This document shows positions 6,647-59,640 of a stretch of 64,000 bases of DNA, in pieces. The stretch covers positions 43,710,001 through 43,774,000 of the forward strand of contig OZ024743.1 of the NCBI GenBank assembly GCA_964016885.1, read 5' to 3'. The translations under genes were made by a program, and so were the position numbers. The stretch is from Eledone cirrhosa. Its lineage: Eukaryota. Under the pieces are notes generated by a model. That model saw only the letters and a program-made list of their open reading frames with translations, had not been told where the DNA came from and did no database searches. Position 1 is the first letter of the stretch. The number at the start of each line of letters is the position of its first letter.

Positions 6647-8911
<2,265 letters not shown>

Positions 8912-9381: not shown

Positions 9382-9419
<38 letters not shown>

Positions 9420-11532: not shown

Positions 11533-11568
<36 letters not shown>

Positions 11569-11721
11569 ATAAATGCTCTGAAATAGCGATATATATGTGA
11601 ATATAGACATAGAATATTCGAAAATATTCTGTATGTTTATAATAAACATTTTGAAGACCTAATCGCTATAGAATAGAATACGTCACGTATTACAATTAGA
11701 TTCTCGATAAAAGCAAGGGAA

Positions 11722-11764
11722 GTAATCTACGCGTTTCATTCTTGTTAGAAATCTTCAGGACTAC
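11722..11764 (-). ncRNA. Type I hammerhead ribozyme (inverted unit of the array)
   Basis: Reverse complement of gtagtc-CTGAAGA-tttctaacaagaat-GAAA-CGCG-TA-gattac. Confidence 0.85.
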
Positions 11765-12069
11765 ATATCCAGTGCTTTTATCGAGAATGACACAGCTAGA
11801 GACTTATAGAATACTTAGCTGTGTACAGGAACTGGTTTGAAAGAGCGGTTGCCGGTCCGGCAGAAATTAGAAATTGGAATAAATGCTCTGAAATAGCGAT
11901 ATATATGTGAATATAGACATAGAATATTCGAAAATATTCTGTATGTTTATAATAAACATTTTGAAGACCTAATCGCTATAGAATAGAATACGTCACGTAT
12001 TACAATTAGACACAGCTAAGTATTCTATAAGTCTCTAGCTGTGTCATTCTCGATAAAAGCACTGGATAT

Positions 12070-12112
12070 GTAGTCCTGAAGATTTCTAACAAGAATGAAA
12101 CGCGTAGATTAC
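12070..12112 (+). ncRNA. Type I minimal hammerhead ribozyme, repeated at 12380, 12690, 13000 and 13310
   Basis: Stem I gtagtc/gattac, core CUGAAGA, stem II ttct-aaca-agaa with U.U base, GAAA, palindromic ACGCGU stem III, GUA cleavage triplet (after 12106). A 16-bp extension attctcgataaaagca/tgcttttatcgagaat flanks it. Confidence 0.88.
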
Positions 12113-13474
12113 TTCCCTTGCTTTTATCGAGAATCTAATTGTAATACGTGACGTATTCTATTCTATAGCGATTAGGTCTTCAAAATGTTTATTATAAACA
12201 TACAGAATATTTTCGAATATTCTATGTCTATATTCACATATATATCGCTATTTCAGAGCATTTATTCCAATTTCTAATTTCTGCCGGACCGGCAACCGCT
12301 CTTTCAAACCAGTTCCTGTACACAGCTAAGTATTCTATAAGTCTCTAGCTGTGTCATTCTCGATAAAAGCACTGGATATGTAGTCCTGAAGATTTCTAAC
12401 AAGAATGAAACGCGTAGATTACTTCCCTTGCTTTTATCGAGAATCTAATTGTAATACGTGACGTATTCTATTCTATAGCGATTAGGTCTTCAAAATGTTT
12501 ATTATAAACATACAGAATATTTTCGAATATTCTATGTCTATATTCACATATATATCGCTATTTCAGAGCATTTATTCCAATTTCTAATTTCTGCCGGACC
12601 GGCAACCGCTCTTTCAAACCAGTTCCTGTACACAGCTAAGTATTCTATAAGTCTCTAGCTGTGTCATTCTCGATAAAAGCACTGGATATGTAGTCCTGAA
12701 GATTTCTAACAAGAATGAAACGCGTAGATTATTTCCCTTGCTTTTATCGAGAATCTAATTGTAATACGTGACGTATTCTATTCTATAGCGATTAGGTCTT
12801 CAAAATGTTTATTATAAACATACAGAATATTTTCGAATATTCTATGTCTATATTCACATATATATCGCTATTTCAGAGCATTTATTCCAATTTCTAATTT
12901 CTGCCGGACCGGCAACCGCTCTTTCAAACCAGTTCCTGTACACAGCTAAGTATTCTATAAGTCTCTAGCTGTGTCATTCTCGATAAAAGCACTGGATATG
13001 TAGTCCTGAAGATTTCTAACAAGAATGAAACGCGTAGATTACTTCCCTTGCTTTTATCGAGAATCTAATTGTAATACGTGACGTATTCTATTCTATAGCG
13101 ATTAGGTCTTCAAAATGTTTATTATAAACATACAGAATATTATCGAATATTCTATGTCTATATTCACATATATATCGCTATTTCAGAGCATTTATTCCAA
13201 TTTCTAATTTCTGCCGGACCGGCAACCGCTCTTTCAAACCAGTTCCTGTACACAGCTAATTATTCTATAAGTCTCTAGCTGTGTCATTCTCGATAAAAGC
13301 ACTGGATATGTAGTCCTGAAGATTTCTAACAAGAATGAAACGCGTAGATTACTTCCCTTGCTTTTATCGAGAATCTAATTGTAATACGTGACGTATTCTA
13401 TTCTATAGCGATTAGGTCTTCAAAATGTTTATTATAAACATACAGAATATTTTCGAATATTCTATGTCTATATT

Positions 13475-13526
<52 letters not shown>

Positions 13527-17305: not shown

Positions 17306-17355
<50 letters not shown>

Positions 17356-17357
<2 letters not shown>

Positions 17358-19100
17358 AGGAGGTTATAGTTCACTTGAAGCATTGTGTAATGAGGTATAA
17401 CCGTTTGAATATGTATAATAAAGCCAAAACAATGCAGGTATGGTCATAGAATAAAGAATGCAAATGCAAAAGATATTGTTGACAATTAGTCTTTTACCCT
17501 AGATTTATTTAAATGTCCTTAATTTTCGAGATAATATCTCTTCTTCATAGTGAAATAAAGGTCTCAAACCAGCGTTCTAAATAGCTTGCCAAGTCATACT
17601 GGCAGGAAATGGTATAGAGTATCTGTTCTATCTCTAATGTCAAAGAGTTAAAATTAGGTGGATAAAGAGTAGTCTCCCTTTAAAAGGGTTTTTTTATTTT
17701 TTTATGTACATGCCTGTTTAAGTGTGTGGGAGAATGCATGAAGGTGTAAGTATGTGAGTGTGTGTGTGTGAGAGTGAGAAGATAAGTCTATTCGCAAATG
17801 TGGGGGATAGTTGTTATCTGGTGTTATCTGGTTTTGTGTGTGTATGTTTGAGAGAGAATAAGTGGAGGTGTAAGCGTGTGTGTGCGTGCGTGCGTGTGTG
17901 TGTGTGGGGTGTGTGTAAATAAATAAATATGGGGCTAGAGGCTCTATCAGGTTATAAATTGGGTGTTGAGTTCTAGTCTATTATTGATTGGTGGTCGTGT
18001 TTTATCTATAATTAGTGCTTCCTTAATTCTAAGATTGCCGAGGTTTCTATCCTTAGTTTCTATCCGAACTGTTATGGTTTTGTCGGTGTTTTTGCATTTA
18101 ACTAGGTGTTTCTTAAATGAGGAAGCGTTAATATTGAGGTGTTCTTTTATTCTTATGTGGAGTGGTCTGGTGGTGCTACCTACATAGAAGTTGTTGCATT
18201 TGTCACACTCTAGTCTGTATACGACGTAAGCCTGGTGGCGTAGGTCTGTGTCGTTGGTGGGGCAGTTGGCTAGTCTGCAGCAGTTGTCATGTCTGGTGGA
18301 GTGTCTTTTCGTTAGCTGTCTGCGTAGAGAAGGACCTGAGTGGGCCAGTGGGATATCTAGTCCCTCTCGTCTGATAGCTCTGCGGATGGCTGTTGTTGTT
18401 TCTTCACTGAAGTGTGGGAGCTTCAGGAAGCAAGTGTTAGTGCCTCGGGTGTGGTTCCTCTGTTCTTTCTGGCACGGTTTGTGGTGGATGTCGTGTATCC
18501 GTTCAGTTTGAGTACTTCCAGGAAATGTGTGGTGTGTGTGTCTCGGTCTCTAGCGTCGGTGAATTTGTTCCAGATACGTGCCAGTTCGTTCCTTATGTAT
18601 CCGAACTTGGCACCGAGTGGGAGGGCCGATCTGAAATGTACGAACAGGTCCCTGTTGGCGGCTTTTTTATAGAAGCAGGTGTGGATGTTGCCTTCCTCCG
18701 TTACCCTGAGTTGGAAGTCCAGTAGGGATAGGGATCCGCGGTCATCGGTGTGTTCCATGCTGAACTTTATACTGGCGTCCATGCTGGAGAATGTTGTGTA
18801 TATTTTATCTGCCTCCTCACGGGATGATGTAAGGATGAGTATGTCATCTACATATCGGGTGAAGAAGGTATGGGAATGGCAGGTGTTGAGGTCTCGGCAT
18901 TCTAGCTGGTTCATGTAGGTGATGGCCAGCATGCCCGATAGGCTGGATCCCATGGGTAATCCTGTTGTCTGTCTGTATGTGTGGTGGTGGAAGATGAAGT
19001 ACGTGTTGTCTACTCAGAAGGACAAAAGCTGGTGTATGGCCGTCGGGTGGAGGCCGTAGCAGTGGATGTCCTCTGCGACCATGCAGGCCGTCAATAAATC
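17356..19100 (-). mobile_element. 5'-truncated Penelope/Poseidon-type PLE (RT + GIY-YIG, frameshifted) with 3' terminal repeat
   Basis: RT motifs MGSSLSG..YM, RYVDD, LSLLD, YKK..HFRS. Endonuclease VVYRLECDKCNNFYVGSTTRPLHIRIKEH..LRIKEAL..INNRLE, with stop at ~17947. Confidence 0.9.
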
Positions 19101-19270: not shown

Positions 19271-21182
19271 CTGATTTCAAGTCTCGCCGAGAGATGGAGA
19301 GAGGAGAAGAGAGATTGGTGAAGGGGTTAAAAGCCAAAAGCGTAAAGTCATGTGCTCGATATGCAATATGCAGTGGAAGGCAACTAGGTGGCTGGGTTCA
19401 TGCAGAGATTAGGTGCACAGAGCTGGAAATATACATTAGTTAAGCAAAACAATACCACACAATTCACAAGGAAGACGTTAGTTAAAGAGTGTCAACACAG
19501 TTGCAGTTTAATGTAAGTAATAATGAGTGTAATTATAGTTTAATGTAAGGAATAATAATAATAATGTCATGTCCGTTTACAATTGGTTCGCTACTCCATA
19601 TAATGTTTCTCGATCAATTGATTATATATCATTATTGACCTGGTTCAGATGAAGATAAGTAACTTAGATAATATTTTGGAGCAGCTCCTCAGAACTTCAA
19701 ATGAGATAATGAAAATATTGATAAAGATAAGATGGAATAAGGAATATAAAATAAAGTAAAGTAAGATGGTTACATGAATGTAATGTTCCATATATTGGTA
19801 TTTCACGAAAGGGGTCCTGGATATGTGTAGTGTCTGCTAAAGCAAGCATTGCGCTTCTGTCGAGACTGTATTAAGCAAGATCTGCCTAACAAAATGGCCA
19901 CTTAAGCAAATTTACGTTACTAATTAGAGACGGGTTTCAAGGGAGGTAACTCCTTGAACAATTAAAATCATAGGTGATTTATAGCTAAGAAGTGCTAATG
20001 AGCTTAAGTGAGAGACAATGTAGGAGAGGTAACTTATAATTATCCAAGTCTGGATTAAATATTTAACATGCTAGCTATATGTATTAGCGAGATTTGATGA
20101 CTCTGTTGGGTCGAATATTCTGTTGGCGTAGGAATTTGCGCTTCGATGGTGACAGTTAATAGTTACCTCATTTCTATCGTTAATAGGTATTATGGTCGTG
20201 ACAGAGTTCTGTAATAGGCCTCCGAAAGACAGAGATCACAACCGTTTTTCGTCCATTGAACGCTGGGGATCTAGCCAAGATATTCCATGTTAGTGTGTGT
20301 TCAATGTTGGTTAATTCAAGGTTTTTAATGAGCCTAGCTAGAGATGTTGAACATCTATTGCTTGGGGCTTGGAAGGAAAATAAGTGCGCGTTATAGCGTA
20401 CCTTAAAAGAGTTAGAGGTATAGCCAATATAGGAGCTAGTATGTAATGCTGTTTTAACTGTGCACCTATATACTATATTGGGAATAAGGCATTGTCCATT
20501 AAGTGGGCATGCATTAGGGTAACAGCAGTTGCAATTACTGTTGCGGTTAGTAAGGGTAGGGTTGTTTAAACTATGCGGCTGGTGTGTACTAATAGGATTA
20601 GAGGGGGGATGTATGCTACTAGAGTAAGTATTGGTGTAGTGGCGTGGTGTATTTGAGAGGGGTGGTGGTACCGCGGTGTGGGTGTCATATGTTTTTAGTT
20701 TATGATGGTTACTAAATGCGATGTGCCTAGCTAGGTTCGGTGTCGTGGAGAATGAGATTTTAAGTTGTTTTTATTAAAGAGTTTGTAATATATATGGTTG
20801 GGGAGGGGGTGTTTAGATAGGATAAAGAAGAAGTGTTCAAGGAAATTAGTGGCTAAATTAGTGGCTAAATTCATTTTCTCATTTGAAGTTGTGAAGAGCT
20901 GCTCTATGATATTACTTAAGTTACTTATTTTCACCTGTGTACTCGTCAAGCAGTCCGAATTAGTGCGGTAGAGACGAGTAGATATGTTGTTGAGGTGTTT
21001 AACTTTGTCAATACTCTGATATGTCCAGTCCCTGGTTGGGTTGTCATTTCACTGAGAAACTGGAATCATATATATATATAAATATATATATTACGAAGGA
21101 AATGTGGTAAAGAACCAGGTGGACCATAACGCACCAAAGTACTCAATACTTAGGGTAGTAGAGTGGGTAATAGGAACGAGTA
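19271..21182 (-). repeat. Inverted segmental copy of 9293-11461 (Naiad fragment plus flanks)
   Basis: Continuous reverse-complement identity with scattered substitutions and one internal deletion. Confidence 0.93.
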
Positions 21183-25800: not shown

Positions 25801-26616
25801 TGGCTGTGCTTAAACGTACCTAATATAAAACAACAGCAATAGACTTTGATATTATTAATTATGACAAACAATATGTATAATAAACAGATCATTAGTACGC
25901 TTTTTCATTATGTTGCATTGCGAAATGGAACAATATCTATTTCGTTTCCATATCAAATTAGTTTATGATTTCTATTGAGATAAATTCAGAATGTTGGCCT
26001 CCAAATTGAATCTATAATCTATTAATCTATCTTATGCAGAAAGAGGTTGGTTAGAAGCAAAATTCATAAATAGCGTGTATTGAGAGAAACATATTGGGCA
26101 GAGTGTAAACGAGTTCTAGTTCCAAGGAATCCCTGTAGATAAGGCTGTTTGAAGGCGCTGAGACATGCGTAGATGCATTGCAAATAGGATTGAATTAGAA
26201 TCACGTTCATTTTATGGAAAACTAGGAACTGAACATGTCGTCTGTTGACTATTCGTATATGAGTCTTGATTGAAATAATTAATCAAATCGAAATAGTGAT
26301 GAGACAATTATTTTAGAATAGCTTTTATTCATTTCATAAATCAAACCAACGAAGAGGTAAATACAATTATAAGGGAGGGTGCTGTTATTTCCACTCCCTG
26401 GCCATTATTTAATATGTTCCTTCGTCTATCTTAATTAAATGCTCAAACCAATAATACCTCATCTGTGTTTGTACAATTATTGATATATATATATTTGTTG
26501 CTTGTAACGTTTTTGAATGTGCATACCAAACACATACACAATTGCACACATAATCACAATGTTGAAAGCGTCTATATACTATTTGAATATAAATATTGTG
26601 CTGAATCAAATATTAA

Positions 26617-26806
26617 ATAATTGTTTCCACTTTAGGCACAAGGCCAGCAATTAGCCAGTGCATTACTGGTACTTTATTTTATCGACCCCGTCAGGATGAA
26701 AGCCAAAGTAAACCTCGGCGGGATTTGAACTCAGATCGTAAAGGGACGTAACTACGCTGGAAAGCACGGCGTCCGACCCTCTACCGATACTGCCAATCCA
26801 CCGCCC
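26617..26806 (-). mobile_element. Main SINE, full length
   Basis: Matches the family consensus, with TSD tattaaataat on both sides. Confidence 0.92.
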
Positions 26807-33644: not shown

Positions 33645-36600
33645 ATGCCACCCCAAAAAAGACCACGACTTAGTTGCCAAGCTAAAGCTGCTTCTGCTGC
33701 CAAACGAAGAAGAGCTACAGACTTGTCCGTAGAAAAATTGACTCGGTTGTCAGAAAATGCAACTCGAAATGCAATTACCCGGGAAACCGAGACAGAAAAA
33801 AAGTGGAGCATCCGCCTTTCCGGAAATGCATTTGTAATTGCAGTTGCACGTGCAGTGCAAACTGATGAATAACATTCTCGACGACGAAGAAACAATGCGG
33901 CCTCTACCGCTGCGGCACGTGGCGGTGAGGACGAAGATCACCGTTACAGTCGACGACGAAGAGATGCCGCCTGAACTGCTGCGTTACGTGCTACCGAGGA
34001 CGAAGGGCAGTGTTCCAGACGTCAACGTACGGACGCCGCTTCAACAGCTTCTGTTCGCGCATCAGAGACTGCGCAAATTCAATTACAAAGGATAAACGCC
34101 AACACACTCTGCAGGAGTGCTAAACGAGGTGCACAGAGGATCAGTTGCGCTCAGTGGTCTCATAAGGCTTCCCACTATGACCCAACAGTAAACTATGCAT
34201 TGATGCCAGAAGTTCAGATTGGCTCCATGTCTGTCATTTGCCAATATTGTCGGGAAAAAAAATGGTCTGGGGAAACTTCAGGGATGTGCTGCTCTGGTGG
34301 CAAAGTGAGACTGCCTCCTCTAGAGGAACCACCACAACTTTTGAAGTTTCTACTGACCGGTGCCACAGCGGAGTCGGAACACTTCCTTCGATGTTCTAGG
34401 AGATACAACGCTGCCTTCCAAATGACCTCTTTCAGAGCTAACATCATACGCGAGGACGGTTTCATGCCCACCTTTCAAGTTCAAGGACAAATTTACCACA
34501 GAATCGGTTCGCTACTGCCCACGACAGACGGACAGCCACAGTTCCTGCAGCTATACTTTGTCACTGACTATTTGGACCAGCGGAACGACGCGCTTCAATT
34601 TCGCCTGGTACAGACATGAACATTCTGTTGCAACTCCAGAGAATGCTGCACGAAAACAACAACTACATTCGCAGTTTTAATTGCGTATTGGAGGCTGCTC
34701 CGTTGCCTAATTTTGTTGTTATAATAGACGCTGACAGGATACTACCAGGCACCCACGCCAGACGTTTTAACACTCCCGCGTGCAATGAAATAGCTTTGCT
34801 TCTTCGTGGAGAACAGTACAACAAGCGGGAAATCATACTTCAGTGTAGGGACAATAGTCTGCAACGGATCAGTGAGACTCATAGGTCTTACGACGCATTC
34901 CAATATCCCCTACTTTTCCCATTCGGTGACGACGGATACCACTTTGGAATTCCTTTGTGCAACAGCAACAAAACTGTTTCCTCTATGCAATTCTACACCT
35001 ACCGATTCATGGTCCGCGAATGCTGCTTTAACCAACTCCACCATGCAAGAGTACTCTTCAACCAGCTTGCTGAAGACGCGTGCGCAAAGATGGAATCTGA
35101 AAGGCTGTGCTACATAAGGAACAATCAAGCACGCCTTCGTTCGGACAGCTACATTCATTACGGGATGGAGTAAGGAATGACGTCGATCTTGAGAACCTAG
35201 GAAAACATTGTATCCTTCCATCAACCTTCATTGGGAGTCCCCGATACATGAGTAGAACGCACACAGGATGCTATGACGTACGTGCGTCTCTACCGCAGAC
35301 CGGATCTCTTCATCACTTCAACATGCAACCCTAAGTGGAATGAAATTACCGCGGAATTATTCCCCGGACGAAGGGCGTCAGACAGACACGATCTTACGGC
35401 ACGAGTCTTTCACTTGAAGTTGACAAAACTTATTGAACTCCTAAAACTAGGTAAGGCCTTTACCGTTGAGTGGCAAAAGAGAGGCTTAACACACGCTCAC
35501 CTACTCATATGACTGATAACGAAAATCAACGCAAGCAACATTAGCAACATCATTTCAGCAGAAATACCCGACCCAAAATTGGATAGAGAACTCCACAACA
35601 TCGTCACTGCCTACATGGTTCATGGGTCATGCGGAAACCGTTTCAACATGAATTTTCCATGCATTTTCCATGCATTAAAGAAAGAAGGTGAACCAAGAGG
35701 TATCCTAGGACATTCCTCCGAGAAACTCGGACAGGTGGCGACAGTTATCCATTACACCGCAGCAGGGAGCCAGCGGACGGAGGAATTGTTGCGAAAGCAC
35801 CACATCACAACGTCGACAACCGGTGGATTGTAACCTACTGCCCACTTCTACTTAAATGTTTAACGCCCACATTAACGTTGAATACTGCCACTCCGTCAAA
35901 TCGATGAAGTACATCTGCAAGTATTTCAATAATGTGTCCGATGCTGCATCCTTTGGTCTTACAATGGAGAACAACGGAGACGAAGTTGAAGGTCGGCCGA
36001 TACATCAGCAGTAATGAAGCGTTCTGGCGATTCTTCCACTTTGCAATACACCATAACTACCCGCCAATCAAAATGTTGGCGGTGCACCTTGAAAACGGTC
36101 AAAGAGTTTACTTCACCGCCTCCACCGCTGCTGAGATAGCAGAGGAACCCAAGGACACCTCACTTACGGCATTTTTTAAGTTATGCCGAAACAATCCTTT
36201 CGCCAAGACAATCTTCTACTCTCAGGTGCCATCACTACAACAGAATTTGGTTAAGACGGGTGAAAGGACAACCCGTCGAGGGACATTCAGACATTAAAAT
36301 GTCCCCTAATCTTGGGAGAGTGTACACGATTCGTCTTAACCAACAGGAATGCTTTTACCTCCGCCTTCTACTGCATGACGTGGTAGGACCGCCACATTCC
36401 GACGATCTGAAAACACTCAACGGAGAGCTTTGTACTTCATTCCGCGCAGCCTGCCTTAGACGGGGTCTACTGGAAGATGGCGCTCAGTGGGATGTGACAT
36501 TGGTGGAGGCAGCTACAATACGCTCAGCGCGAACTCTTCGGAAACTCTTTGCGGTTCTACTGCAGACATGCGAGTTAAGCGATCCTGCATCTTTATGGGA

Positions 36601-38220
36601 CAAATACAAAGAGGACCTTTCCGATGACTACATACTCCAAGGACAATTGCTACTCCCTCATTCCGACGTACGACTCACCGACAAATTCTTCAACAAAGCT
36701 CTCATTGACATCGAGGACAAAATCCTAACTGCCGGCGGAAATGACCTTCAATTCTATGGACTGCCAATGCTCGGACAAACTTCCGACGGGCATAATTCAG
36801 GAAACTGCCTACGACGTCCACGCCCTCGAACTGTTCATCAACGAAAACGAGCCGAAATTGTTTCAGGACCAACGGCGTGCGTATGACACAGTTTGCACTT
36901 CCATTCGTCAACGCAGAGGAGATATCTTCTTTTTGGACTCCCCAGGAGGAAATGGTAAAACATTCGTCAAGAAACTCCTCCTCGCCAAGGTGCGACAGCA
37001 GAAAGGAATCGCCCTGGCTGTGGCTTCTTCTGGCATTGCGGCAACTCTGCTGCCCGGAGGTAGGACAGCTCATTCCGCATTTAAACTACCATTCAACACG
37101 ACTTCAGACGGCACAATAACCTGCAACATCACCAAGGACTCTGACAAATCTGAAGTCTTGAAAAGATGCCACCCAATTGTGTGGGATGAATGCACAATGG
37201 CCCATAACGTGTCCCTTGAGGCGTTAGACAGTACCCTACGAGACATCAGGGAATGCAACCGGCCGATGGGAGGAGTACCTCTACTGCTGTCTGGCGATTT
37301 TCGACAAACTCTTCCAATTGTTCCAAAAGACACCAGGGCCGACACTGTGGGGGCTTGCATTAAGTCATCTCCACTGTTGCAGGAAGTGACAATCCTTACC
37401 CTCACAACAAACATGAGAGCCCAACTGCTCGGCAACCACACAGCAGCCGACTTCTCAAATGACCTCTTAACAGTCGGTGACGGCACTGCACCTTCAGATG
37501 CAGCTGGAGAAAAGGCAGTCTCGCAAGTAGGCACCGTTGTCGACACTATCGACGACCTCACAGCCTCTGTCTTTCCCGATATGGTGACCAACTCCAAAAA
37601 CATGAGTTGGCTATGCAATAGAGCCATATTGGCTCCCAAAAATGTCTCAGTTGCAAAAATCAATGAGGACCTTCTGAAACACATTCCTGGAAACCTCCGT
37701 ACCTACAAATCTGTGGACAAAGTGGTGGACAAAGATGAGGATGACGATTTTCCAACAGAATTCCTCAATTCTTTGGACCTCTCTGGACTGCCACCTCATG
37801 AACTGCGCATCAAAGTTGGGACTCCAGTCATGCTGTTGAGGAACCTGGAACCGCCACGTCTCTGCAACGGAACACGGTAAGTGGTAAGAAACCTCCTGCC
37901 GCATGTAATTGAAGGCTCAATTCTCACGAGCTGCGGCGCTGGAGAAAAGGTCTTCATACACAGAATACCATTAACTCCATCAGCACGGAATGCCCCTGTA
38001 CTCTGCGCCGACTTCAAATCCCCGTTAAACTTTGCTCGCGATGTCAATCAACAAGTCCCAAGGCCAAACGCTATCAACGGCAGGCATGTATTTAGCCCAG
38101 CCGTGCTTCTCACACGGCCAATTATACGACGCATGCTCAAGAGTGTGTTGCAAACAGAACTTATTCATACTTGCGCCCAAAGGCAGAACAAAAAATGTGG
38201 TCTACATAGAGGTGTTGTGA
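33645..38220 (+). pseudogene. Helitron RepHel (zinc finger, HUH Rep, PIF1-like SF1 helicase) with multiple frameshifts and stops
   Basis: CQYC..CCSGG, PDLFITSTCNP, VEWQKRGLTHAHLL, KYICKY, PGGNGKT, VWDEC, GDFRQTLP, LLRNL..LCNGTR, SINKSQGQT, HGQLY..SRV. Confidence 0.95.
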
Positions 38221-38402
38221 CTCCACTATTCAGCACCACTGCAGTCTTGCCGGTCTGACATATGGTGAGTAGATGATGCTATTGTTGTATATGTTCAAAC
38301 TTACCCGTATTTACTTTCAATGCCTCAATAATCATAATTGAGTGAAATCATTAAAATTCTTTAAAACAATTAAACTCCGAGCAGCGCCAGGCATTTCTCC
38401 TA

Positions 38403-38472
<70 letters not shown>

Positions 38473-38474
<2 letters not shown>

Positions 38475-38810
38475 TAGCATATAGAGTATTTTGCAATACA
38501 CTGTATGCTTAATTAAAAGCATTTTGAAGACCTTACGCTATTATTTTAAAGTAGTGACTATGTCACTTACTTCTTTTTTCAGCAAACAAAGGGAGATAAG
38601 AACAGATCTCTGTTTCGTACTGTTGGTACTTCTCAGAGATTAGCACTCCCTTTGCCTGCTGAAAATGATGAATGTTAGATTGTTATAGAATCTCTTCAGA
38701 GCACCATTTCTAATTTTCAATTTTTGCTGCTCCGGCATACAGTGTATTGCAAAATACACTATATATACATTCATATATATATCGCTATTTCAGAGCACCA
38801 ATTATTATAT

Positions 38811-38813
<3 letters not shown>
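38473..38813. mobile_element. Relative of the 310-bp array unit, with an inverted part and a variant hammerhead (38606-38640, minus)
   Basis: Shares tagcg..ggtcttcaaaatg, catacag and atatcgctatttcagagca. Minus strand reads atct-CTGAGAA-gtac caaca gtac-GAAA-cag-agat inside a long stem. Confidence 0.8.
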
Positions 38814-38881
<68 letters not shown>

Positions 38882-39164: not shown

Positions 39165-39262
39165 AATGGAAGTTTAGTAAATCGAAGTTTTGGCCAAGTT
39201 AACGATATATAATTAGGAATGTGCAGGAAATCACTCGATATGGCTGTGTCACCTTAGAGTAT

Positions 39263-39447
39263 TAACTGTTTCTACTTTAGGCTCAAGGCCACCAAATACC
39301 CAGTGCATTACTGGTACTTTATTTTATCGACCCCGTAAGGATGAAAGGAAAAGTCAACCTCGGCGGGATTTGAACTCAGATCGTAAAGGGACGTAATTAT
39401 GCTGGAAAGCATGGCGTCAGACCCTCTACAGATACTACCAATCCACC
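39263..39447 (-). mobile_element. Main SINE
   Basis: Matches the family consensus. Confidence 0.9.
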
Positions 39448-40317: not shown

Positions 40318-40550
40318 CAGTTTTCCTCCAATGCTTCTGCTGGATCCATCTAGAGGGCGCAAGCCGTCAGACTTTCAATAGTCATAGCTTGGCTTTGAAA
40401 TATTTATATATTAAACATAGCGTATATCTGTAGATAGAGGAGATTTACATACTTGTACATCTATAAAGGTGTTTCGGATCTAAATTGTAATTCTCTTTCT
40501 CTATATATATCTCACTCTCTCTTTTTCTCTCTATCTTCTCTCTCTCTCTC

Positions 40551-42850: not shown

Positions 42851-43745
42851 GTATATATATTTCCGGGATAACAGATTACCGTTATAGGGAGTCCACTTAG
42901 ATGTAATCCAGTTTGAGTGCTCCGTGTAGTGGATGGTATTAACGTATGGCTTAGTTTGACTCAACAAGACGTTTCCATAGTGATGCTGCGAGTTCGCGGT
43001 GATTTCTATGTTTTTTATACTTGGTGTAATAATAGTCCAAGAAATAAAGGTGACATGGTTTGCTATACAATAAGGGCTTTATTCACATTTCTGACAATTG
43101 TTTCTTTGATCTGGTAGGTCTAGAGTCAGCTATTCGCTTGATATTTCGTCAATCGATCTCCAATACTTTGTTTATAACCAGTCGTTTTCATCAGAGCGTG
43201 CGAAAGTGAATAAGATACACAAGGCATGGATGTTATAGAGGAGTGGTATTAAACCAGAACAATAATATCAATAATACAATAACTAGATACTGAATAGTTA
43301 AAATAATAACATCAATATAAGTAAGAAATAGAGTATAATGATGAATCTAGCATATTAAACGAACTGATGTGATACAGATGTTTGAAATTGAGATGTGAAA
43401 AGTGATATAGGGTACAGTAGATGTAGTGTTAAGGTGGTGAAGAGATAACTAATAAAATGTACTTGGAGCCATGATTTAGGAGGTATATCGTATGATGTAG
43501 GTCTGAAAACACACTGGCAATAAACGGAAGATGTATTTATTGCTTAACAGATAAGCATTTTCGTTGTATTAGTTTAGTGAGAATGATAGGGAGGGTGCAA
43601 AGAGATATATAGTTTTTCTGTGGTGTTAAGTGAAGTTGTAGATTCGCTGTTTAAGTGGCCTATTCTAAAAGTTGGGATTGTTAGTTCGAATCATGAGGAT
43701 TTAGTTTTCACAACCTCAATAACAAATAGTGTATAAATAAGAAAA

Positions 43746-43935
43746 TAATTATTTCTACTTTTGGAACGAGGCCAGCAATTACCCAGTGCATTACTAGTAC
43801 TTTATTTTATCGACCCCGTACGGATGAAAGGCAAAGTTAACCTCGGCGGGATTTGAACTCAGATCATAAAGAGCCGTAACTCTTTGCTGCAAAGCATGGC
43901 GTCCGACCCTCTACCGATACTGCCAATCCACCGCC
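43746..43935 (-). mobile_element. Main SINE, full length
   Basis: Consensus match with TSD ataaataagaaaataat. Confidence 0.92.
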
Positions 43936-44058
43936 ATAAATAAGAAAATAATAATAACAATAATAGAGACAATAAAAGTAATCAAATAGTAAAATATGCA
44001 TGGTAAATAGAGAGAACATGATGAATAAAATTAGGGATACATTGAGATGATCATAATA

Positions 44059-44236
44059 ATAATTGTTTCTACTTTAGGCACAAGGCCAGCAATTACCCAG
44101 TACATTACTGGTACTTTATTTTATCGACCCCGTAAGGATGAAAGGCAAAGTTAACCTCGACGGGATTTGAACTCAGACCGTAAAGGGACGTAACTATGCT
44201 GGAAAGCATGGCGTCCGACTCTCTACCGATACTGCC
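44059..44236 (-). mobile_element. Main SINE, young insertion
   Basis: TSD cataataataat. Absent from the inverted paralogous arm (empty site at ~46030). Confidence 0.92.
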
Positions 44237-44558
44237 ATAATAATAATAAGAGGAAAATAAGATTTCAAGAAGTGTAGGAGTAATAAGGTAATGTACTTAG
44301 AATTAAGTTCATCTGTTAGAGATCATGAGTGCTAATGTGAGATACGTAGATATAATTGTTTGGTCCGAAGAAATAAACAACAGCAAATATGGGATTGATT
44401 TATGGGCTGACAATATAGTTGTAAACATTACTGCCCCGTCCTAGTGGTATAGATTTAGGGAGGCTAGAAGGTGTTTATAGAAGATGATGGTTCTGTAGTG
44501 GACTGTGTGAGAATGTGGATTTCATATGTTAAATGCTAAGTGATTTTCCCTTTATATA

Positions 44559-48665: not shown

Positions 48666-48683
48666 GAACCATATTAATAATAA

Positions 48684-48990
48684 TAATTGTTTGTACTTTT
48701 GGCACAAGGCCAGCAATTCACCAGTGTATTACTGGTACTTTATTTTATCGACCCCGTAAGGATGAACGGCAAAGTTAACCTCAGAATAATAATGCTCTCT
48801 GATCCAGTTAAAAGTCATATATTTTATAGTAGGTGGAGACCGATAAAATTATACACAGTGCATTGCTGATACTTTATTTTATGGACCGTGCAAGATTGAA
48901 AGGCAAACGTAACGTCGGTGGAACATGAAATCAGAAGGTAGAAGGTTGCAACTCTATTCTACAGAGCATGTTGTCTCAGCTTCTATCGAT
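48684..48990 (-). mobile_element. Two partial main-family SINE copies
   Basis: Tail and core at 48684-48782, and an older copy at ~48855-48990. Confidence 0.75.
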
Positions 48991-49844
48991 ATTTTCGTAT
49001 CTAGTGTGGTAAACTCCTGTTTCATATGTCATTTATTTTCTCTACACGAATATAAACCACAATAAAAGCACTAAACAAATAATTCTAATAGCGCACATTT
49101 ATGTTTTATTCAATATTTCAATTACGTTTGTTTTTATGATTCATTAAGCGATTAAATGACAATAAATTCTCATATCCAAAATGATTACACAAATATATTT
49201 AACAGGTTATCAGAGACTAATATCTGATTGATTTTAATACGAGTGGTTTGCTATTTTGGTGCATGATATGTTAACACATTTATTTTATTATGACACGTTC
49301 GTAATTGAATAATAAGTAGAAAAAAATGAGGTGTTTATTATTCTGCAAATTTGTGTATCTTCTACGAAAAACTCTATGTAATCATTACGATTGATAAGGG
49401 ATTATACCAGCTTAATGTTTATCTTGTTGAAGTTGATTAGTTGTATTTACTTTAAACAATATAGTGTACAACAACTAGTATATATAAAGGTATATGTGTG
49501 GGTGTGTGCGTGTGTGTGTGTGTGCATCAAGAACCAATGTATCGTCTTCCTGTTTTCCTTCGGTTGCACCGTTTTTCGAAATATTTACTTCTGCGTTCAC
49601 AGATTGATTTTTTAGTTTCACAAGATCACGTTAAGGGTGAAAGCAGCGATTCATTGCTTAAGTTTTAATCTGTTATTTTAATAAATATATATATATCAAT
49701 GGCAACATTGAGGACCGAGTATATTATATTATATTAGATTACCGATATAAAAGACACAGAAGCGAAAAGCGAAAACCAACCAAACAGTGAGTGTTCTGTT
49801 ATTAATTCTGGCAATATTACACAAATATGACCCTCCCCAAGTAT

Positions 49845-49931
<87 letters not shown>

Positions 49932-49933
<2 letters not shown>

Positions 49934-52500
49934 AAGACGGGTAAAATTCCCGAGATCCAGGGACAAGTTCTCTCCAGCGGTCTCTGTCCCTCATTATCGC
50001 TGTCCCTCATTATGTCCTGCAGCTCCAACAGACCAGTGTCTGTCCTTAGGGCATCAACACACGTTATACTTGGTCTTCCTCTTCTAGTGTGTCCATGTAG
50101 GGGATCCCAAAGGAGCACTGAGTGCAATGTCAACTCTGGATATCGGTGAGCATGTCCAGCCAACCTCAGTCTCCTCTGTGTCACTTTTGAGCTGACTTTT
50201 GGGATGCTCCCATACAGCTCTGAGTTATTCATACTCAGTGTATACTGATTAATGTTCAGAGCCATCCTCAGCATTCTCGTGTAGCACCCATCCACCATCT
50301 GAGTGAGTTTCTTGGTCAGTGTCCAAGTCTCAGACCTATAAGCAGCACAGACTCCACTACAGCAATGAAGAGGCGGACCTTCGGGTCTCTACGAAGGTCC
50401 GACTTCCACACCGATCTCAAGCTGTGGCACGCCGCCCAGTCCTTGCTCTTCCTCTCAACCACATCATCTTCCGTATTCCCAATCTTTGCTCCCAAATACA
50501 GGAAGTCCTCAACCAATTCCAGTGGCTTCCCGCCTACATTAGTGATCCTCTCTGGCTTCTCAACATTCTCTACGTGATATTTTGTTTTAGTCTCATTCAT
50601 TCTCAGCCCCACACTCATCGATACAGTCTCAACCTCCCGCATCAAATCCTCTGCCTCCTTCACTGTATTTGTCACCAAGACTATGTCGTCGGCAAATTCA
50701 GCATCTGATACCTTTTTGGCCCTAACTCTCCTGCTCTGAGCCGGTGCTACAGTAAATCCAGAGTCCTGGTGTTTCTCCAGTGCAAGGCGCATACAATAGT
50801 CCACTACGATGATAAAAAGGTAGGGAGCCAATGTATCTCCCTGGAGCACTCCAGCCAGTATCTCAAAGAACTCTGTCATCGCATCAGGTGTAATGACTTG
50901 GGCTTTGGTGTTGGTGTAGAGCAGTGATATCAGGTCCACTATCCTCTTGGGATTCCATAAGCCTGTAAGATCTTCATCAGGCAGTAACGGTCCACAGAAT
51001 CAAAGGCCTTCCTAAAGTCACTGAAAACCATGACCGCAGGAAGGCACTTTGCTCTAGCTCCCTCTAATATCCTCCTCAGCATCAGGATATGACTGGTGGT
51101 TGATCTACCCTCTCTGAAGCCGTTTTGGTTGTCCCTGAGCTTCTTCTCCATCTCAGGCTGGATCCTGTTAAGAATCATCCTGTTGAGGGTCTTTGCCACA
51201 AGTGACGTCAGTGAGATCCCCCGGTAGTTGTTGGTGTTAGAGAGCTCTCCCCTCTTTGGCACTGGGACGATGTTACTGATCCTCCACTGATTCGGGGCAA
51301 CTCCTTTCTCCAGTGCCCCATTACAGAACCCCAGGGTGATATCATCAAAATCACACCTCTTCATCACCTCTGATGCCACTCCATCTTCTCCATGAGCCTT
51401 GCCCTCCTTGATCCTCTTCTTGGCTCTCTGAAGCTCCGCTATGGTGAAGGGCTCTGTCTCAACATCCAGTTCCTCAAACAGCCGCCTGATCTCCCCAGTG
51501 CTCTGGGCTGTGGAGGGTGGCTCTCCTAGTAGGGTCCTAAAATGGTCTAGCCATGTCCTCTTTCTATCCTCGAGCCCCATTCCCTGGATCTGACTCGAAC
51601 ACCTTCTCTTCCTCCCTGTGATCTCGTTGATGATCATCCAGCTCTCCTTACATCCAGATCTGTCAACCGCTCTCTCCCCACTTCTGATCTTCTCTATCAG
51701 TGCCTCCTCTCTGACCTCAGTGTAAGCGGTACAGAGCTCTTCCCTCATCACCTCCACAGTCTCCATCCTCTCCTCCGTAGGATCAGCATAGAATTGGTCC
51801 CTGGCAGCTTTCAGGTGTTCTCTGGCTGCACACACTTTTGGGTTTGCAGAGCTGACGTGCTTCCCTTTGTTCTTTTTCCTCGGCACCAGGGTTTCACTTG
51901 CTTCCACCACTGCATTGGTGAAGTGCCCGTACCTCCTCGTCACACTCTCCTCAGTCCATCCAATCTCTCTCTCCTCTGACTCTCCACACAGAGCACTAAA
52001 CCTGTTTCTCACTTCCACTGTGAACCTCTCCTGTAGCTTATCATCTTCCTTGAAAGCTCCCCAGTCATAGATTGTTCTCCGGGGCTGAGCCTTGCTCTTT
52101 CTTAAGCTCACGCAGACCTCAATCATAACAAGCCGGTGGTCACTACCCAGTGTACTGAAATAGCTGTATGGTTCCGTGTTCAGAAAGCTATTCCGCCAAT
52201 TTTTCCTCACCAGAATGAAATCAATCTGGGACTTGGACAGGTGCATATCTGAGATGTAGGTCCACATCTTCCCCAGATTCTTCCTAAACCTTAGGTTGGT
52301 CGCCATCAAGTTAGCCTCCTGCAGGGTGTCTCTCAGTAGTCTTCCATTTCGGTTGGTGTTGTTATGGAAGTACCAGCAAGGATCTTCACTGCCCTCCTTA
52401 CTCAGATGTGCATTGAAGTCCCCCAAAACAAGCAGGATATTGTGTGCCTGAGTGGTGTTGACAGCTCTACACACCTCCTCATGGAACTCCTCCGCATTCA
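49932..52500 (-). mobile_element. 5'-truncated RTE/RTEX-like LINE (AP endonuclease end + RT), at least two frameshifts, 3' end in (TA)n
   Basis: LGDFNAH, IDFIL, SDHRL, NYRGISL, QNGFR, DFRKAFDS, GVLQGDTLAPYLF, FADD, RRLRLAGH. Confidence 0.92.
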
Positions 52501-52960
52501 GGCCCATCTTCCCTGCACCCAAAGACGCTACGATGCAAAAGTAAATTGAAATATATGTATCCCTGTCTATAAAAACGTATTTGTTTTTATATGTGTTTGT
52601 GTATGTGCGTGAGTATATTTGTGTTCTTCTATAACAATTCATTCAAACGAATGACTTCAGAATATGATACGTAAGTACATAGAATAATATCCGTGATGAT
52701 TTTGTTATGTTTTACCCTCAGGAAATATATTGAATACACTGAGAGATGTCTTGCAATGTAGGTTATTTCAATAATTGTAAATAAAATAATCGTTATTTCT
52801 CACATTTACATCACAATTGCTTACTAAATTGCAAGTGACATCATTCTATTCAAATTTTACGGTAAATATAGCAAATATATTTCCTTTGAAAATTGAAAGC
52901 ATTACTTTACAGTATAATGAGAAATCGTCGTAATTAGATACATACATAATGTAACGTTAG

Positions 52961-54642: not shown

Positions 54643-54861
54643 TAATGATTTCTACTATAGGCACAAGGCCAGTAATTTGGGGGAAGGGGAAAGTCGATTA
54701 AATCGACCCCAGTACATTAGTGTTGCTTTATTTTATCGACCCCATAAGGATGAAAGGCAAAGTTAACCTCGGCAGGATTTGAACTCAGACCATAAAGGGA
54801 CGTGACTCTATGCTGCAAAGCATGGTGGATGGTCTCTACCGATACTGCCAATCCACCGCCC
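54643..54861 (-). mobile_element. Main SINE, longer subfamily variant
   Basis: Extra block ggggtcgatttaatcgactttccccttcccccaaa before the tail. Confidence 0.88.
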
Positions 54862-55093: not shown

Positions 55094-58000
55094 ATTCAAT
55101 TCAATTCGATATTCAATTCAATATATTTGGCAGAAATTAAAACATAGATGCTTCAGATGCCATGTAAAGGGGGGGGGGGCAACATTTACACAGTCCGAAA
55201 CACAGTGGTCCAACACCGGTCCAATCTCGCCTTGAATTGTTGCGTGGTTGACGCCTTGACTACTTCTTCTGGAAGCCGATTCCAGGGTCCAGAGATGCGG
55301 ATCGAGAAAGCAGCTTTCCCTCTATTTAGGCTAAAGCTGTGGTGAAACAGCTTTTTGTTATGTCCACGTAGACCCCTTTCAAGTGCCGGAATGAATAGGA
55401 GATCTTGAAGGAGATCGTTTTGGCCTTTGAAGAGATTGTAAACCAAAATGAGTTCGCCTCTTTGCCGTCGACGCTCCAAGGAGAAGAGGTTCAGCTTCTG
55501 CAGCCGGCTTTCGTAGGGCAGCTCATGAAGACCCTGTGCCATTCGAGTCGCTAGTCGTTGAACTCTCTCCAAGTGATGGATATCCCGGATGAGATATGGG
55601 TTTGATGCTTGGATGCCATATACTAGATGCGGTCTCACGAGGGAGACATAGAGAGGCCTGAAATTTTCTGGAGTAAGTTTGGCAAAGGAGCGTCGAATAA
55701 GAAAAGGAGAGCACCTTGTTTGCGGCTTGAATGCAATGCGTTGATGGTTTGAAGGACGAGTCGACCAGCAGATCAAGATCGTTAGTCTCCTCAACCTGCA
55801 TCAAAGAAGCAGTGCCACCGTCGAAGGTAGGAGCTGAATTAAGGTGTACTCCTGCCATATGGCAACACTTATCGACATTGAGGTAAAAATCCCAGTCAAT
55901 GGACCAACTCCAGTCGCACTGGAGGTTGGACTTGAGATTGTCGATCTCGCACCTACGGGCTACCATTTTCACATCATCTGCAAATAGAAGCACGTTTCCA
56001 CCAATCACGTCCGGCGTCTCGTTGATGTATAGAAGAGAATTGGTCTCAACATAAAGCCTTGGGGAACACCCACTCCCGATGATAGACCACCATTGATCCG
56101 AACTCTGCAAGTACGACTCTCAAGAAATGATCCAATCCACTTTATAATCGAATCATGGAGACCATAGTTGCTGAGCTTATGCAGGAGCAGGCGGTGGCTG
56201 ACAGAGTCAAAGGTTGTTGCGAAGTCGAGAATGATAATATCGGCCGCATCTCCATGATCTATTATCCTCGTCACCCATTCTTCCATCACGAGTAGATTTC
56301 TAAGACAGGAACGTTTCGGGATGAAACCGTGTTGAGATGGAGAGATGGCAGTGAAAGACGCAAGATGAACCATAATTGCCCGCTTGATTAGAGATTGCAA
56401 GGCTTTACAGACGATTGAGGTGAGGCTCACGGGTCTGTAGTTCCACGAATCTTCTTTGTCGCCTTTTTTAAAGATAGGGAAAATTATAGCTACTTTCCAG
56501 TCGGCAGGAACAACTCCGGTAGCCAATCATAGGTTGAATAGTGTGGCTACAGGTTTAGCAAGGTTGCGTGAAACTGCACCCCAAATCGCTGGATGTACAC
56601 CGTCTGGACCATGCCCCTTATTCACATCTAAGGACAAAAGCAACTTTTCCACCTCATCCGGTCTGACTGTGGTTGGCTGCATTGGTGGGGAGATCATGTT
56701 TAGATTTGGAGGTTCTCTGCCGTCGTCCTCCTTGAAGATATTTGCGAAAACATCGGCAAAAAGAGAAGCTTGTTGGTCAGCGTGTTCAATAACTGCACCT
56801 TCGGGGTTTCGGAGAGTGACAATTTGGTTATTCAGTTTTTGATTTCTCTACACGTGAGCATAAAATCGCTTTGGATTACGACCGGCATCATTTGCAAGTT
56901 CCCTTTCAAAATGTTGCCTTCCAATTCTGGAAATATGCTCGACATGATTTCGCTGCTTTCTGTAGACTTCAAATGCCGCCGCAGACATGGTCTCTTGATA
57001 GTGCCCCCAAGCAGCGTTTCTTAACTTCCGCTCGCGGATAATTGTCTTTGTTATCCAGGGTTTGTGTTTCTTGCGTTTTGGCGTTCTCAGCGGCACTGCC
57101 ATTGCTGTTAGCCCTAGTAGAATTTCCTTTATTTCTCGCCACAAAGTTTCAACAGGTGATTTTCAGTTAGGCTGCGCCAATTTATCTCGTCGGAGGCTAT
57201 TTTGATAAGATCATGATTCATAGCAGCAAATATTCTTCTTGCCTGATTCAAAACGGGAGACAGTGCAAGCAAAGTATGCATGCTAAAGCTCAGTACTGCA
57301 TGATCGCTTTTCCCAAGTGGAGACAACTTGCAGAGACGATACGGATCTAGGATAACAGGAGAAGATAAGTTCTAGTAACGACGGTCGTTGACCACTTCAA
57401 GCCTTTGTCGGTTTTGTAACATGCTGGCAGATGAAATATTCTTCCGTCGTATCGAGCAATAGTTGGTCGAAGTTATTGTTGGACATGCACACATTTGAGT
57501 TCCAGTCTATAGTCGGGGCATTAAAATCCCAGAGCATAAGAAAGTCATTTGGACATCTTGAGACAGCTTCCATTACAATAATGAGATTCTGATCTTCCTC
57601 TGTTGTAGAACTAGAACTGCGATAGATCGAAAGAACGGGAATAGTTTCTCCACCCACTTTAAGATTGCAAAGAACAGCATCAAAGTTCTCCGAAAGTATG
57701 GTGTTCGGTGCTAGAGATTGGCGAGATGGTTTGAGTGATGATCTTGCATAAACGATAACTCCCCCACGTTTTCTTTGAGATCTATCACAACGGAATGCAG
57801 TAAAGTCAGGATTGTGAATCTCTGCATCCTTGACTTTGGAAGGTCTGCCTTCTCGTCTGCAATAACGGAATGGGCATCATCAAGTTTGGACAGAAGAGTG
57901 CAACCGTTGGTTAAAATAACTTTGAATGAGTGATAAATGGACAGCGATTTCAGCTTTAATCGCTTTTTGGGGATCTTCGGGAGGAAGTTGGAGGGCTTCA

Positions 58001-59640
58001 TGCACACCTAATCTGAGATGGCTGTTTGTTCTGACAGGGAAGTTTGGAGTCTTGGGATATCGTTATTGGGGCCGCCCAAAGGTAAGAGTGTACTATCTTT
58101 ACGTTTCTTATCCGCAGACCAGTCTCTCCGGCAGCTATGCGTGACCTGAGTTCTGTCTTCAAAGTTCTCCAGCGGATTCTTTCTTTTAAGGAGAACACCT
58201 TCCGAAAATCCAATTTACTATTCCGGTAACACTTTCTGGCTTCGGCAAGGAAGTCCTCTGCTTGCTGAGAAGTACAGAATTTGACTTTGATGTGTCGGGG
58301 TCTAAGTTGGGATTTCGTTCTTCAGATTTTTGGCCAATTCTCACGGCTCGGACTTGCGTCTTGTCATCTGAATCACCAATATTGACTTTGATAATGTTTG
58401 AGATAAACTCAAAGTCTTGGTGGTACCTCTCCTTTTCAGTGTTTGCACAGCTTTCGGAAACTCCGTAGACATAAACAGATTTGTTACACTGTTCTTCTTC
58501 AGGGCTGGCTGCTGTCTTGGGGGTACCACATTTACTTGTAACATAATGGCGACCGTTTACTGAGTTGACCCGATCCGCTTCATCTTCAAGTGGACTTGTA
58601 TTTGCCGTAACAAAATTGTCTGCTGGGCTGATAGCGAGACAAGGTTTGTTTCGATCATCAACCGTGTCGGAGTGGCGGTGTCGCCTTTTGGACGACCGAC
58701 AAACCCTGGCAGAGGGATTTACAGTGTTTTGATCAGAGATTAAACCTGCACCATTCATCGTGGTAGATGCATCTGCGGGAATTTGATGAGTAGACTAGAC
58801 CAATGTGTTTTGCTTGGTGTTGTTTTGTGCAACACCTGCCATATTCTTGCTTTGCTTCCTTTGCGCTTCGGTTTTGCTTTGATCGTCTTCGTCTGGGAAG
58901 ATGTAGATTTAGACGGTCTGGAAGACACATCATTAGGAGGTTGAAGTGATAATATCGTGTCTTCCATTAACAACATCTTTGACATGAGGGCATCAAGTTG
59001 AGTTTGCAAGTTTGCGTTTGTCAGATTGATTTGTCAGATTGATTTGGTTAAGGTTCAGTTTCAACCGCTCGCAAGCAATTATATTTATAGGTCGGTGGCA
59101 TAACATTACGAGAAGTTTGGACAGTCGAGCGAGCTCTTGTACTTGCAGGCATTATTGTGCTTAGAAAATGTACATACGTTGACGGTTGGAGTTGAAGAAA
59201 AAGAGGGTATAATCCACAAATGCGTAGAACAATAAAAAAAGAACCAGCAGCAATAAACCTCTTTAGATGAGTAGTCGGATCAACTTGAACTGTTAAGGAC
59301 CAAAATTGGTGTGCAGGTTATACGTGTTGGATAGAACCTTCACGTCAACCGTTTAACATCAGTCTAGAGTTGTTGGTTTGTCGTTGTTGTTGCTCTTGGT
59401 GCAATTTTAGTTTTTAATTACATTGTTGCTCTTGGAATTGTTGTTGCTGCCGTTTTCCTAACTTGTTTAATTGTTGTTGTTGGTGGTGTTGCTAAATTCG
59501 TTGTTGTATGTTGTGTTTGTAATTACGTTTTGCTGGTCCATAATTTTGCTACTCATTATGTATCCCTCCTCTCAACTTTTAAGTCGCTATCACAAGACGG
59601 CAGACTTAGTATTGGGGGCGTGTCTCGTCCATCTTTTAAA
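55094..59640 (-). mobile_element. Near full-length, heavily mutated CR1-clade LINE (ORF1 + APE-RT ORF2)
   Basis: ORF1 NKSVYVYGVSE..RIG..LKTELRSR..GE..LRIRN. ORF2 YRS, DFNAP, SDH, NYRPVSLT, QHGF, GVPQG, LFADD, YESRLQKLNLFSLERRR. (ATTGA)n tail at ~55094-55122 and a CAA-rich 5' UTR. Confidence 0.9.

Follow-up and report, generated by a model that had tools for sequence, protein, structure and literature searches.

Non-LTR retrozymes of metazoans are described, in the main texts of PMC7229834 and of a 2026 preprint (10.64898/2026.07.22.740005), as non-coding tandem repeats of 150-450 bp, low in GC and with a type I hammerhead in each unit. Transcription, cleavage, and circularisation are established for other retrozymes according to the main text of PMC7229834, and PLEs have been proposed as their mobilisers (Cervera and de la Pena 2020, PMC7229834; Li, Clavereau and Pollet 2026, 10.64898/2026.07.22.740005; main texts). 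A word search of these two main texts gave no description of inverted two-arm arrays, of a tail, or of start sites. Among the papers listed by searches of the openly accessible literature, no title or abstract opening described tails, inverted arrays, or start-site structure in retrozymes.

PLEs carry a 30-40-bp tail, and Naiad and Hydra PLEs combine it with an inverted 5'-truncated arm and (TA)n targets (accessible text of PMC8557442). For an anole PLE, Poseidon of Anolis, in vitro work showed that the tail spans the distance from one internal RT start site to a second, both of them downstream of the hammerhead; both strands of an AT-rich target are nicked and extended, and a dimer is predicted (Frangieh et al. 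2024, main text of PMC11167929). Poseidon is autonomous and starts in an AC-rich stem-loop, and the two-helix architecture described below is not in the main text of that paper; PLE start-site folds in its supplement may bear on the novelty of our findings. The head-to-head arms of PLEs had earlier been explained by self-priming (accessible text of PMC3846280). PLE passengers are also on record, namely non-autonomous Chlamys elements such as MRC1, which occur as head-to-tail copies (Craig et al. 2021, accessible text of PMC8557442). The repeats analysed here belong to a class of element already described; what is new is that its mechanism comes into view. They differ from Poseidon in being non-coding passengers, in showing the signature in vivo, and in using strictly one site per arm.

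A decayed two-armed retrozyme insertion at 38.5 kb

The window, that is, the whole 64,000-nucleotide stretch of Eledone cirrhosa DNA that was analysed, contains at 38.5 kb a decayed two-armed insertion of a hammerhead-bearing repeat, a member of non-LTR retrozyme family B. Its two arms face outward between (TA)n tracts, and the features are as follows (window positions):

38404..38473, no strand: left flank, (TA)n target, immediately behind the 3' end of a Helitron
38479..38691, minus: left arm, a 5'-truncated family-B monomer with its 3' end outward, terminating in the site-1 region
38483..38502, minus: hairpin P2 of the minus arm, GCAA loop, one pair broken
38505..38522, minus: hairpin P1, 6 bp, with one compensated pair (U-A/C-G)
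38521..38532, minus: conserved single-stranded box, with a positional homologue in P3-group PLEs
38536..38541, minus: 5' strand of P0, a predicted enclosing helix, invariant in A, B, and most C
38549..38572, minus: upstream hairpin, double-sided covariation absent from the sample
38576..38665, minus: type I hammerhead domain on a long stem, folding z -8.3
38695..38803, plus: right (inverted) arm, made up of the tail box plus the stretch after it (38695-38736), a jump of ~220 nt into the next unit, and P2 onward as far as site 2
38741..38760, plus: intact hairpin P2 of the plus arm, 8 bp, GCAA loop
38773..38803, plus: PLE-type tail from start site 1 (~38772) to site 2 (~38803), with an AU run, the 3' strand of P0 (38783-38788), and the 5' strand of the predicted helix H1
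38806..38878, no strand: right flank, (TA)n target

A previous sequence-only reading had taken 38473-38813 for a diverged sibling of a 310-bp array unit, and this was borne out. The two are homologous by local BLAST (E 4e-11), and the monomers align over their whole length with 211 of 303 aligned bases identical (~70%) and a score of 270, against at most 131 in 200 shuffles. The 310-bp unit defines family A, and the unit at 38473-38813 (~320 bp) its sister, family B. The continuous string of stems and boxes quoted in the same reading does not exist on one strand, being a composite of the two oppositely oriented arms. Its first half is the minus strand from 38541 to 38483, where P2 has one broken pair and runs directly into (TA)n; its second half is the plus strand at 38736-38803, which is without the box and P1. 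The composite does fit intact family-B copies, e.g. that of locus L003. The 11-nt tail box, said to occur twice, was found at 38695-38705 and 38789-38799. It is present twice because the plus arm begins in the tail of one unit, skips ~220 nt, and resumes within the next unit.

The hammerhead of the minus arm comprises a core at 38630-38636, stem II at 38617-38629, and stem III at 38602-38616. It is likely inactive, to judge from its sequence, because G8 of the core is replaced by A and 2 nt are deleted at the cleavage site and stem I. A scan of the window with Rfam at the gathering score reported no hammerhead and no match of any kind. The description of the whole element as non-ribozyme had nevertheless to be given up, since its minus arm carries this damaged hammerhead at 38576-38665. 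Family B has a canonical hammerhead core, with stems I-III in most copies. In family A (window core e.g. at 12076-12082), stem III is palindromic and minimal and stem II starts with a U-U pair at its base, both as in axolotl motifs; motifs of this type function as dimers (accessible texts of PMC4209133 and PMC7229834). Among 80 cores of families B, C, and D, positions 3 and 8 covaried, forming C-G in 52, U-A in 22, and a mismatch in 6, U3-A8 being a known PLE hammerhead variant (accessible text of PMC4209133).

Families A and B both form tandem arrays (units of 310 and 318-320 bp), and their GC contents (0.34 and 0.33) are below the 50% limit for retrozymes. Motif and pairing indicate one type I hammerhead per unit, damaged in the window copy. 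We found no frame of at least 120 aa inside a family-A or family-B element, nor an LTR; a 124-aa stop-to-stop frame begins in the B arm and extends through the TA repeat. A target-site duplication was not discernible within (TA)n. On these sequence features, A and B are non-LTR retrozymes in the sense of the main texts of PMC7229834 and the 2026 preprint, because both carry the type I hammerhead motif. No RNA run was listed among the sequencing runs containing the family-A unit. Three of four runs of unknown kind gave a single 340-nt cyclic contig at a depth of 10-26, which says nothing on expression or spread between organisms, because a trace-level tandem DNA array suffices to give the same contig.

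The 3.0-Gb genome contained 22,476 exact matches to a box-P1 pattern and 3,186 to a B-specific 28-mer probe (0 for the controls in both cases), as well as 368 to a pattern for an older variant. Clustering of 133 full units separated family A, which is young, from family B and from several subfamilies of greater age, here labelled C and D. Widely spaced B matches were arrays or separate insertions, and an autonomous element behind them was rejected on that account. Units of different subfamilies were seen joined in tandem within insertions (L087, L069). Some old arrays, all of subfamily D, look satellite-like, each with 9-16 or more units that have diverged (L083, L263, L264), and L083 carries U3-A8 hammerhead cores.

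The window holds other repeats. A Helitron Rep/helicase remnant (PIF1 and Helitron domains) occupies 33975-38402, and its 3' end abuts the (TA)n tract that holds the family-B insertion. A dispersed SINE-like family, putatively of octopus type, was seen at 26608-26802, 39253-39447, 43736-44244, 48674-48971, and 54708-54825, and two LINE remnants with AP-endonuclease/RT frames at 49729-52642 and 55186-58794, both on the minus strand.

Paired outer ends of the insertions

Insertions in (TA)n consist of two head-to-head arms with their 3' ends outward and up to 19 units per arm. The window contains one of family A:

11563..13485, no strand: family-A insertion, with a minus arm at 11563-12010 (1.4 units, to site 2) and a plus arm at 12010-13478 (4.7 units, to site 1)

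We mapped the ends in unit positions numbered from the hammerhead cleavage point. For family A, 33 loci were entered, 27 of which contained the family and 19 of which were two-armed with both outer ends visible. All 19 were minus-then-plus, and in 17 the ends fell at positions 126-139 (site 1) and 163-165 (site 2), the exceptions being L031 and the divergent L063. Inner arm junctions lay at scattered positions, mostly with an overlap of 0-5 nt. For families B and C, 87 loci gave 89 insertions, 45 of them two-armed; both ends could be classified in 17, all of which (17/17) paired site 1 with site 2. Twenty further B/C loci gave 13 two-armed insertions, and the 10 that were classifiable again all followed this rule. 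In a total of 44 two-arm insertions with classifiable ends, the arms thus stopped at different sites, one at each of the two, which are ~35 nt apart, with the reservation that the site-1 class is loose (any end within the AU run counts); no same-site pair was found among these 44. Counted from the hammerhead cleavage point, site 1 lies at ~130 nt, and another 35 nt separate it from site 2. The insertions have an inverted 5'-truncated arm and a 35-nt tail at one end only, as PLE insertions do, and the pairing of site 1 with site 2 is the twin-start 'tail' signature described for PLEs. The fixed, paired outer ends agree better with twin target priming than with self-priming.

A tandem or circular template had been proposed from the repeated box, and this is supported. 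In 8 of 22 family-A loci, all complete units shared one locus-specific set of variants, in 7 of them on both arms. From their sequences, these locus-wide private variants would fit passage through one monomer, most simply a circle, although they do not prove it. Three family-A loci (L034, L138, L139) had mixed unit types; a variant unit recurs there at 4- or 6-unit spacing or irregularly, which hints at multimeric templates or later duplication.

Pairing in the hairpin module

P1 and P2 were both recovered by RNAalifold. Families A and B differ at 6 of the 28 positions of these stems, all as three compensated pairs, in line with what had been noticed from the window alone; the probability of the differences falling as pairs by chance is ~0.001, for stems that were defined after the fact. 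A third-family pattern, in which one P1 pair was broken by design, returned mostly mutated B and A copies. Because this broken pair biases the alignment that includes those loci (A1), another alignment (A2, 31 copies) was built without them. In A2, P1 was 97.8% and P2 97.6% paired, with double changes at 4 pairs; the four rows of family A are displaced by one column at P0, which makes the P0 counts of this alignment too low. The covariation score of A2 beat 500 of 500 shuffles, whereas the number of covarying pairs was not above shuffles, being equalled in 84 (A1), 60 (A2), and 71 (helix H1 of P3, see below) of 500. The compensated changes in P1 and P2 correspond to ~4 independent events. A G-U intermediate was present at P2 pair 4 in three loci.

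The tetraloops, UUCG in family A and GCAA in family B, are closed by a U-A pair in both and had been interpreted as an exchange of one stable type for another. We sampled 322 well-paired hairpins, with a search that enriched for older subfamilies and with overlapping family-A loci, and found 175 UNCG loops, 87 GNRA loops, and 60 of neither class, including GCCA (25), ACCA (16), and ATCA (6) in other subfamilies. In PMC4371310, special stability is attributed to UUCG loops that a C-G pair closes. Neither the C-G closure nor the conserved loop class of stable cUNCGg/GNRA hairpins was found, and the notion of a stable-tetraloop swap does not survive these data. As judged from the sequences, the P1 and P2 stems look selected, whereas the loop sequences do not.

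Folding predicts that a helix, P0, encloses the box, P1, and P2, its loop measuring 75 nt in A as well as in B. Since neither P0 nor H1 varies among the retrozymes, the two helices show no covariation there. The module is the best-conserved part of the unit: A and B are 76% identical between P0 and site 1, 86% within the tail, and 81% directly behind it, as opposed to 51-60% elsewhere. According to the folding model, P1 and P2 would be retrozyme-only inserts within the P0 loop. A likeness to Pol III A and B boxes, judged by eye, was dropped as weak.

A PLE family with a similar predicted start-site architecture

We compared the retrozymes with PLE families of the same genome. One of these, P3, has 15,977 candidates and an intact ~900-aa frame (L216), and its group is represented in the window:

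17355..19013, minus: 5'-truncated P3-group copy (RT and C-terminal GIY-YIG), ending at its own site 2 (17356), with a P0 5' strand and box homologue at ~17424-17435

Pfam identified RVT_1 and GIY-YIG in P3, and GxKF, DKG, CCHH, and the Cys linker were recognised by reading. It is a canonical C-terminal-endonuclease PLE, and by its sequence appears to be Neptune/Nematis-like. In 15 of 15 P3 loci with both ends, counted by eye, the sites were paired 40-44 nt apart; the tail measures ~38 nt in P3b and 35 nt in the retrozymes.

Overall sequence similarity between the retrozymes and P3 was not significant (alignment p 0.09-0.9, BLAST E 0.48 or higher). When the window and 93 PLE loci were searched with a covariance model built on the module, strong matches were to retrozymes alone and no module was found in PLE ends; two weak matches, at window 40378-40492 and in L236, looked on reading like chance. 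The link between A/B and P3 is structural and positional, unlike that drawn in the main text of the 2026 preprint, which ties retrozymes to pLTRs by sequence. It also differs from Chlamys-type passengers, which generally share 3' sequence with their partner, as A and B do not with P3; most Chlamys and Naiads are, besides, without a canonical hammerhead (accessible text of PMC8557442).

Around site 2, A, B, and P3 are predicted to fold alike, into H1, a 21-22-nt loop, a small GC hairpin, and a closing strand, and site 2 lies exactly 12 nt into the H1 loop in each of them. A descriptor of this arrangement, written after the sequences of A, B, and P3 had all been seen, matched A, B, and P3 (once in 3.2 kb), with a background of 5 matches in 388,942 nt of other loci and 0 in 2000 shuffles. 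In a test set beforehand, for which older P3-group copies were added, H1 was 91.8% paired in 14 read-through copies and covaried across P3 subfamilies, with double changes at 3 of 7 pairs. G-U intermediates occurred as well, and the 3' strand is missing from one copy. The P3 H1 overlaps the first codons, and its paired changes include a Val-to-Ala change accompanying a Thr-to-Ala change.

Site 1 of the P3 group is enclosed by a P0-like helix, with the last 7-14 nt of the loop past the site (9 in A). The P0 5' strand was present in 43 of 52 P3-group rows, which are related, and a box homologue followed 1-5 nt behind. Its match to the retrozyme box averaged 7.6 of 12 positions, as compared with 5.1 in shuffles (maximum 5.7 in 1000). 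By subfamily, the match was 11/12 in P3b, which looks old (median pairwise 9%), and just 6-7/12 in the young, intact P3 family. On these sequence matches, the retrozyme box is likely a signal shared with P3-group PLEs, a partner other than the one first proposed. Under the folding model, the P3 group is the likely mobilising partner, because it has in common with the retrozymes both of the helices that bracket the starts and a box in the corresponding place.

Other motifs were seen in the PLE ends. In the terminal repeat of P3, a hammerhead-like motif whose core is a variant (L215 ~4975-5010; window 17520-17545, minus) lies ~120 nt before site 1, a spacing similar by eye to that of the retrozymes. 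A similar five-letter pyrimidine-led motif, again by eye, occurs 12-20 nt before site 2 in the tails of A, B, P3, the Hydra family, and the L177 family.

Hydra-clade and other PLEs of the window

The elements flagged as Naiad in the sequence-only reading, and proposed there as the partner, include the following:

6686..8765, minus: Hydra-clade PLE, six-letter box in an 85-nt tail

Naiad identity was rejected, since an endonuclease-like region follows the RT end instead of an N-terminal GIY-YIG and since DKT is found, not DKA. The element has a C-terminal endonuclease, a CxCX5C linker, CxxC, CxH, DKT (read in L260), no CCHH, and a (TA)n target, which by the motifs given in the accessible text of PMC8557442 places it in the Hydra clade; it carries RWR in place of RWK, and Pfam gave no match. 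The TCTTCA box noted at 6700, 17282, and 30997 is present, as three copies of this one Hydra-clade family, and the 8-mer that the family has in common with A and B is not clearly above chance (p ~0.06). The family is young (1,162 candidates, copies 99% identical), and the H1 geometry was not found in the folds of two read-through copies. A hammerhead-like motif in its terminal repeat, the core of which is non-canonical (U4 to A), has been kept in 99%-identical copies (6790-6850, minus; 16820-16860; 17087-17110, minus). Locus L014 (~1030-1100) shows a family-B arm joined without a gap to the 3' end of a Hydra-clade element, possibly by template switch.

An abundant non-coding, palindromic family that targets (TA)n (window 9176-9385, 6155-6310, and 21060-21180), with two end classes ~80 nt apart, is a candidate passenger of the Hydra family. 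The low-copy L174-L184 family has a hammerhead whose stem II closely resembles that of family A; as a partner of the retrozymes it was dropped, having no module and a tail of ~75-80 nt. Window 5810-6058 and L245, L249, and L252 belong to a PLE family that is Neptune-like, has a longer tail, and carries a U3-A8 hammerhead.

Proposed mechanism and alternatives

We consider it probable, from the folding model and the insertion ends, that the module belongs to the RNA signal that tells a PLE RT where to start copying the family-B retrozyme, by twin priming of a P3-group dimer on a ribozyme-made circle. The repeat would be transcribed, cut by its hammerhead, and closed into a circle of ~310-320 nt. 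A dimer of the P3-group RT-endonuclease (C-terminal GIY-YIG, ~900-aa frame) would nick both strands of a (TA)n tract and prime one cDNA at each of sites 1 and 2; each RT would then roll round the circle, and the two cDNAs would be joined at their far ends by microhomology. Recognition is predicted to involve P0, which encloses site 1 (9 nt before its 3' strand) and has the box just inside, and H1, with site 2 12 nt into a 21-22-nt loop, before the small GC hairpin. The earlier proposal of a multi-stem RNA element serving in RT recognition or priming is upheld by the compensated stems and by insertion ends lying inside or just after the module, with the exception of Naiad as the partner. Several results weigh against the mechanism: retrozymes and P3 show no overall sequence similarity, the module model gave strong matches to retrozymes alone, the H1 descriptor was written with all three sequences in view, P0 and H1 do not covary in the retrozymes, the P3 H1 overlaps the beginning of the reading frame, tail lengths differ, young P3 matches the box poorly, the compensated changes are few, Rfam gave no hammerhead at its gathering score, and loci occur with mixed units or with a fusion to a Hydra-clade end (L014).

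A mobiliser of the Hydra clade, acting through the six-letter box, or of a PLE family outside our sample seems very unlikely to us. The Hydra family is young, targets (TA)n, shares the 8-mer with A and B, and is fused to a B copy in L014, and several further PLE families exist in the genome, part of which were examined; against this, the Hydra ends are 85 nt apart, the box is inside the tail and not upstream of site 1, the shared 8-mer is not clearly above chance, and the two read-through folds are devoid of the H1 geometry. It is unlikely, too, that a PLE copies a linear multimeric transcript, the conserved block being read as DNA (an endonuclease site or promoter) and the arrays being homogenised later by conversion. 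This would agree with the mixed units of L034, L138, and L139, with the conservation of the block in sequence and not in pairing alone, and with data of PMC11167929, the main text of which reports uncleaved RNA as the main substrate in vitro and cites earlier work in which the tail was needed for DNA recognition by the endonuclease. Against it stand the private variants extending over both arms, the H1 covariation of P3 with its G-U intermediates, and new insertions in (TA)n tracts that are without the conserved block.

A further possibility, which we regard as doubtful, is that no selection acts on P1 and P2: they would be palindromes whose perfection is maintained by template-switch correction as the RT copies them, and their apparent covariation would be mutational. 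The small number of independent events in these stems would be compatible with this, and so would the loops that drift freely, the lack of P1 and P2 in the PLE, and the good folding of either strand (for A, z -5.4 and -5.0; for B, z -6.9 and -3.3). The G-U intermediate at P2 pair 4 speaks against it, as do hairpin lengths and spacing that stayed fixed across ~30% divergence.

For the mechanism that we favour, copying of a circle by a P3-group dimer, a more specific version can be formulated, to which we give even chances. P0 with the box would frame site 1 and H1 with its single-stranded loop would frame site 2, as a two-domain RNA ruler; a 310-nt circle would mimic this ruler by shape alone, and the RT dimer would copy it twice, giving palindromic arrays. 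Such a ruler is reminiscent of the framing of the template in telomerase RNA, and PLE RTs are sisters of telomerase.

Significance

The mobility of animal retrozymes and the choice of internal start sites by PLE RTs are treated as open questions in the main texts of PMC7229834, PMC11167929, and the 2026 preprint. The thousands of natural insertions provide maps of the starts at the level of single bases and a strict rule of one site per arm. Together with a candidate enzyme whose frame is intact (L216) and a predicted RNA element small enough to mutate, they make both questions directly testable. If true, the RNA-ruler reading would name an enzyme and a cis signal for the mobility of animal retrozymes and would provide a minimal template for a PLE RT.
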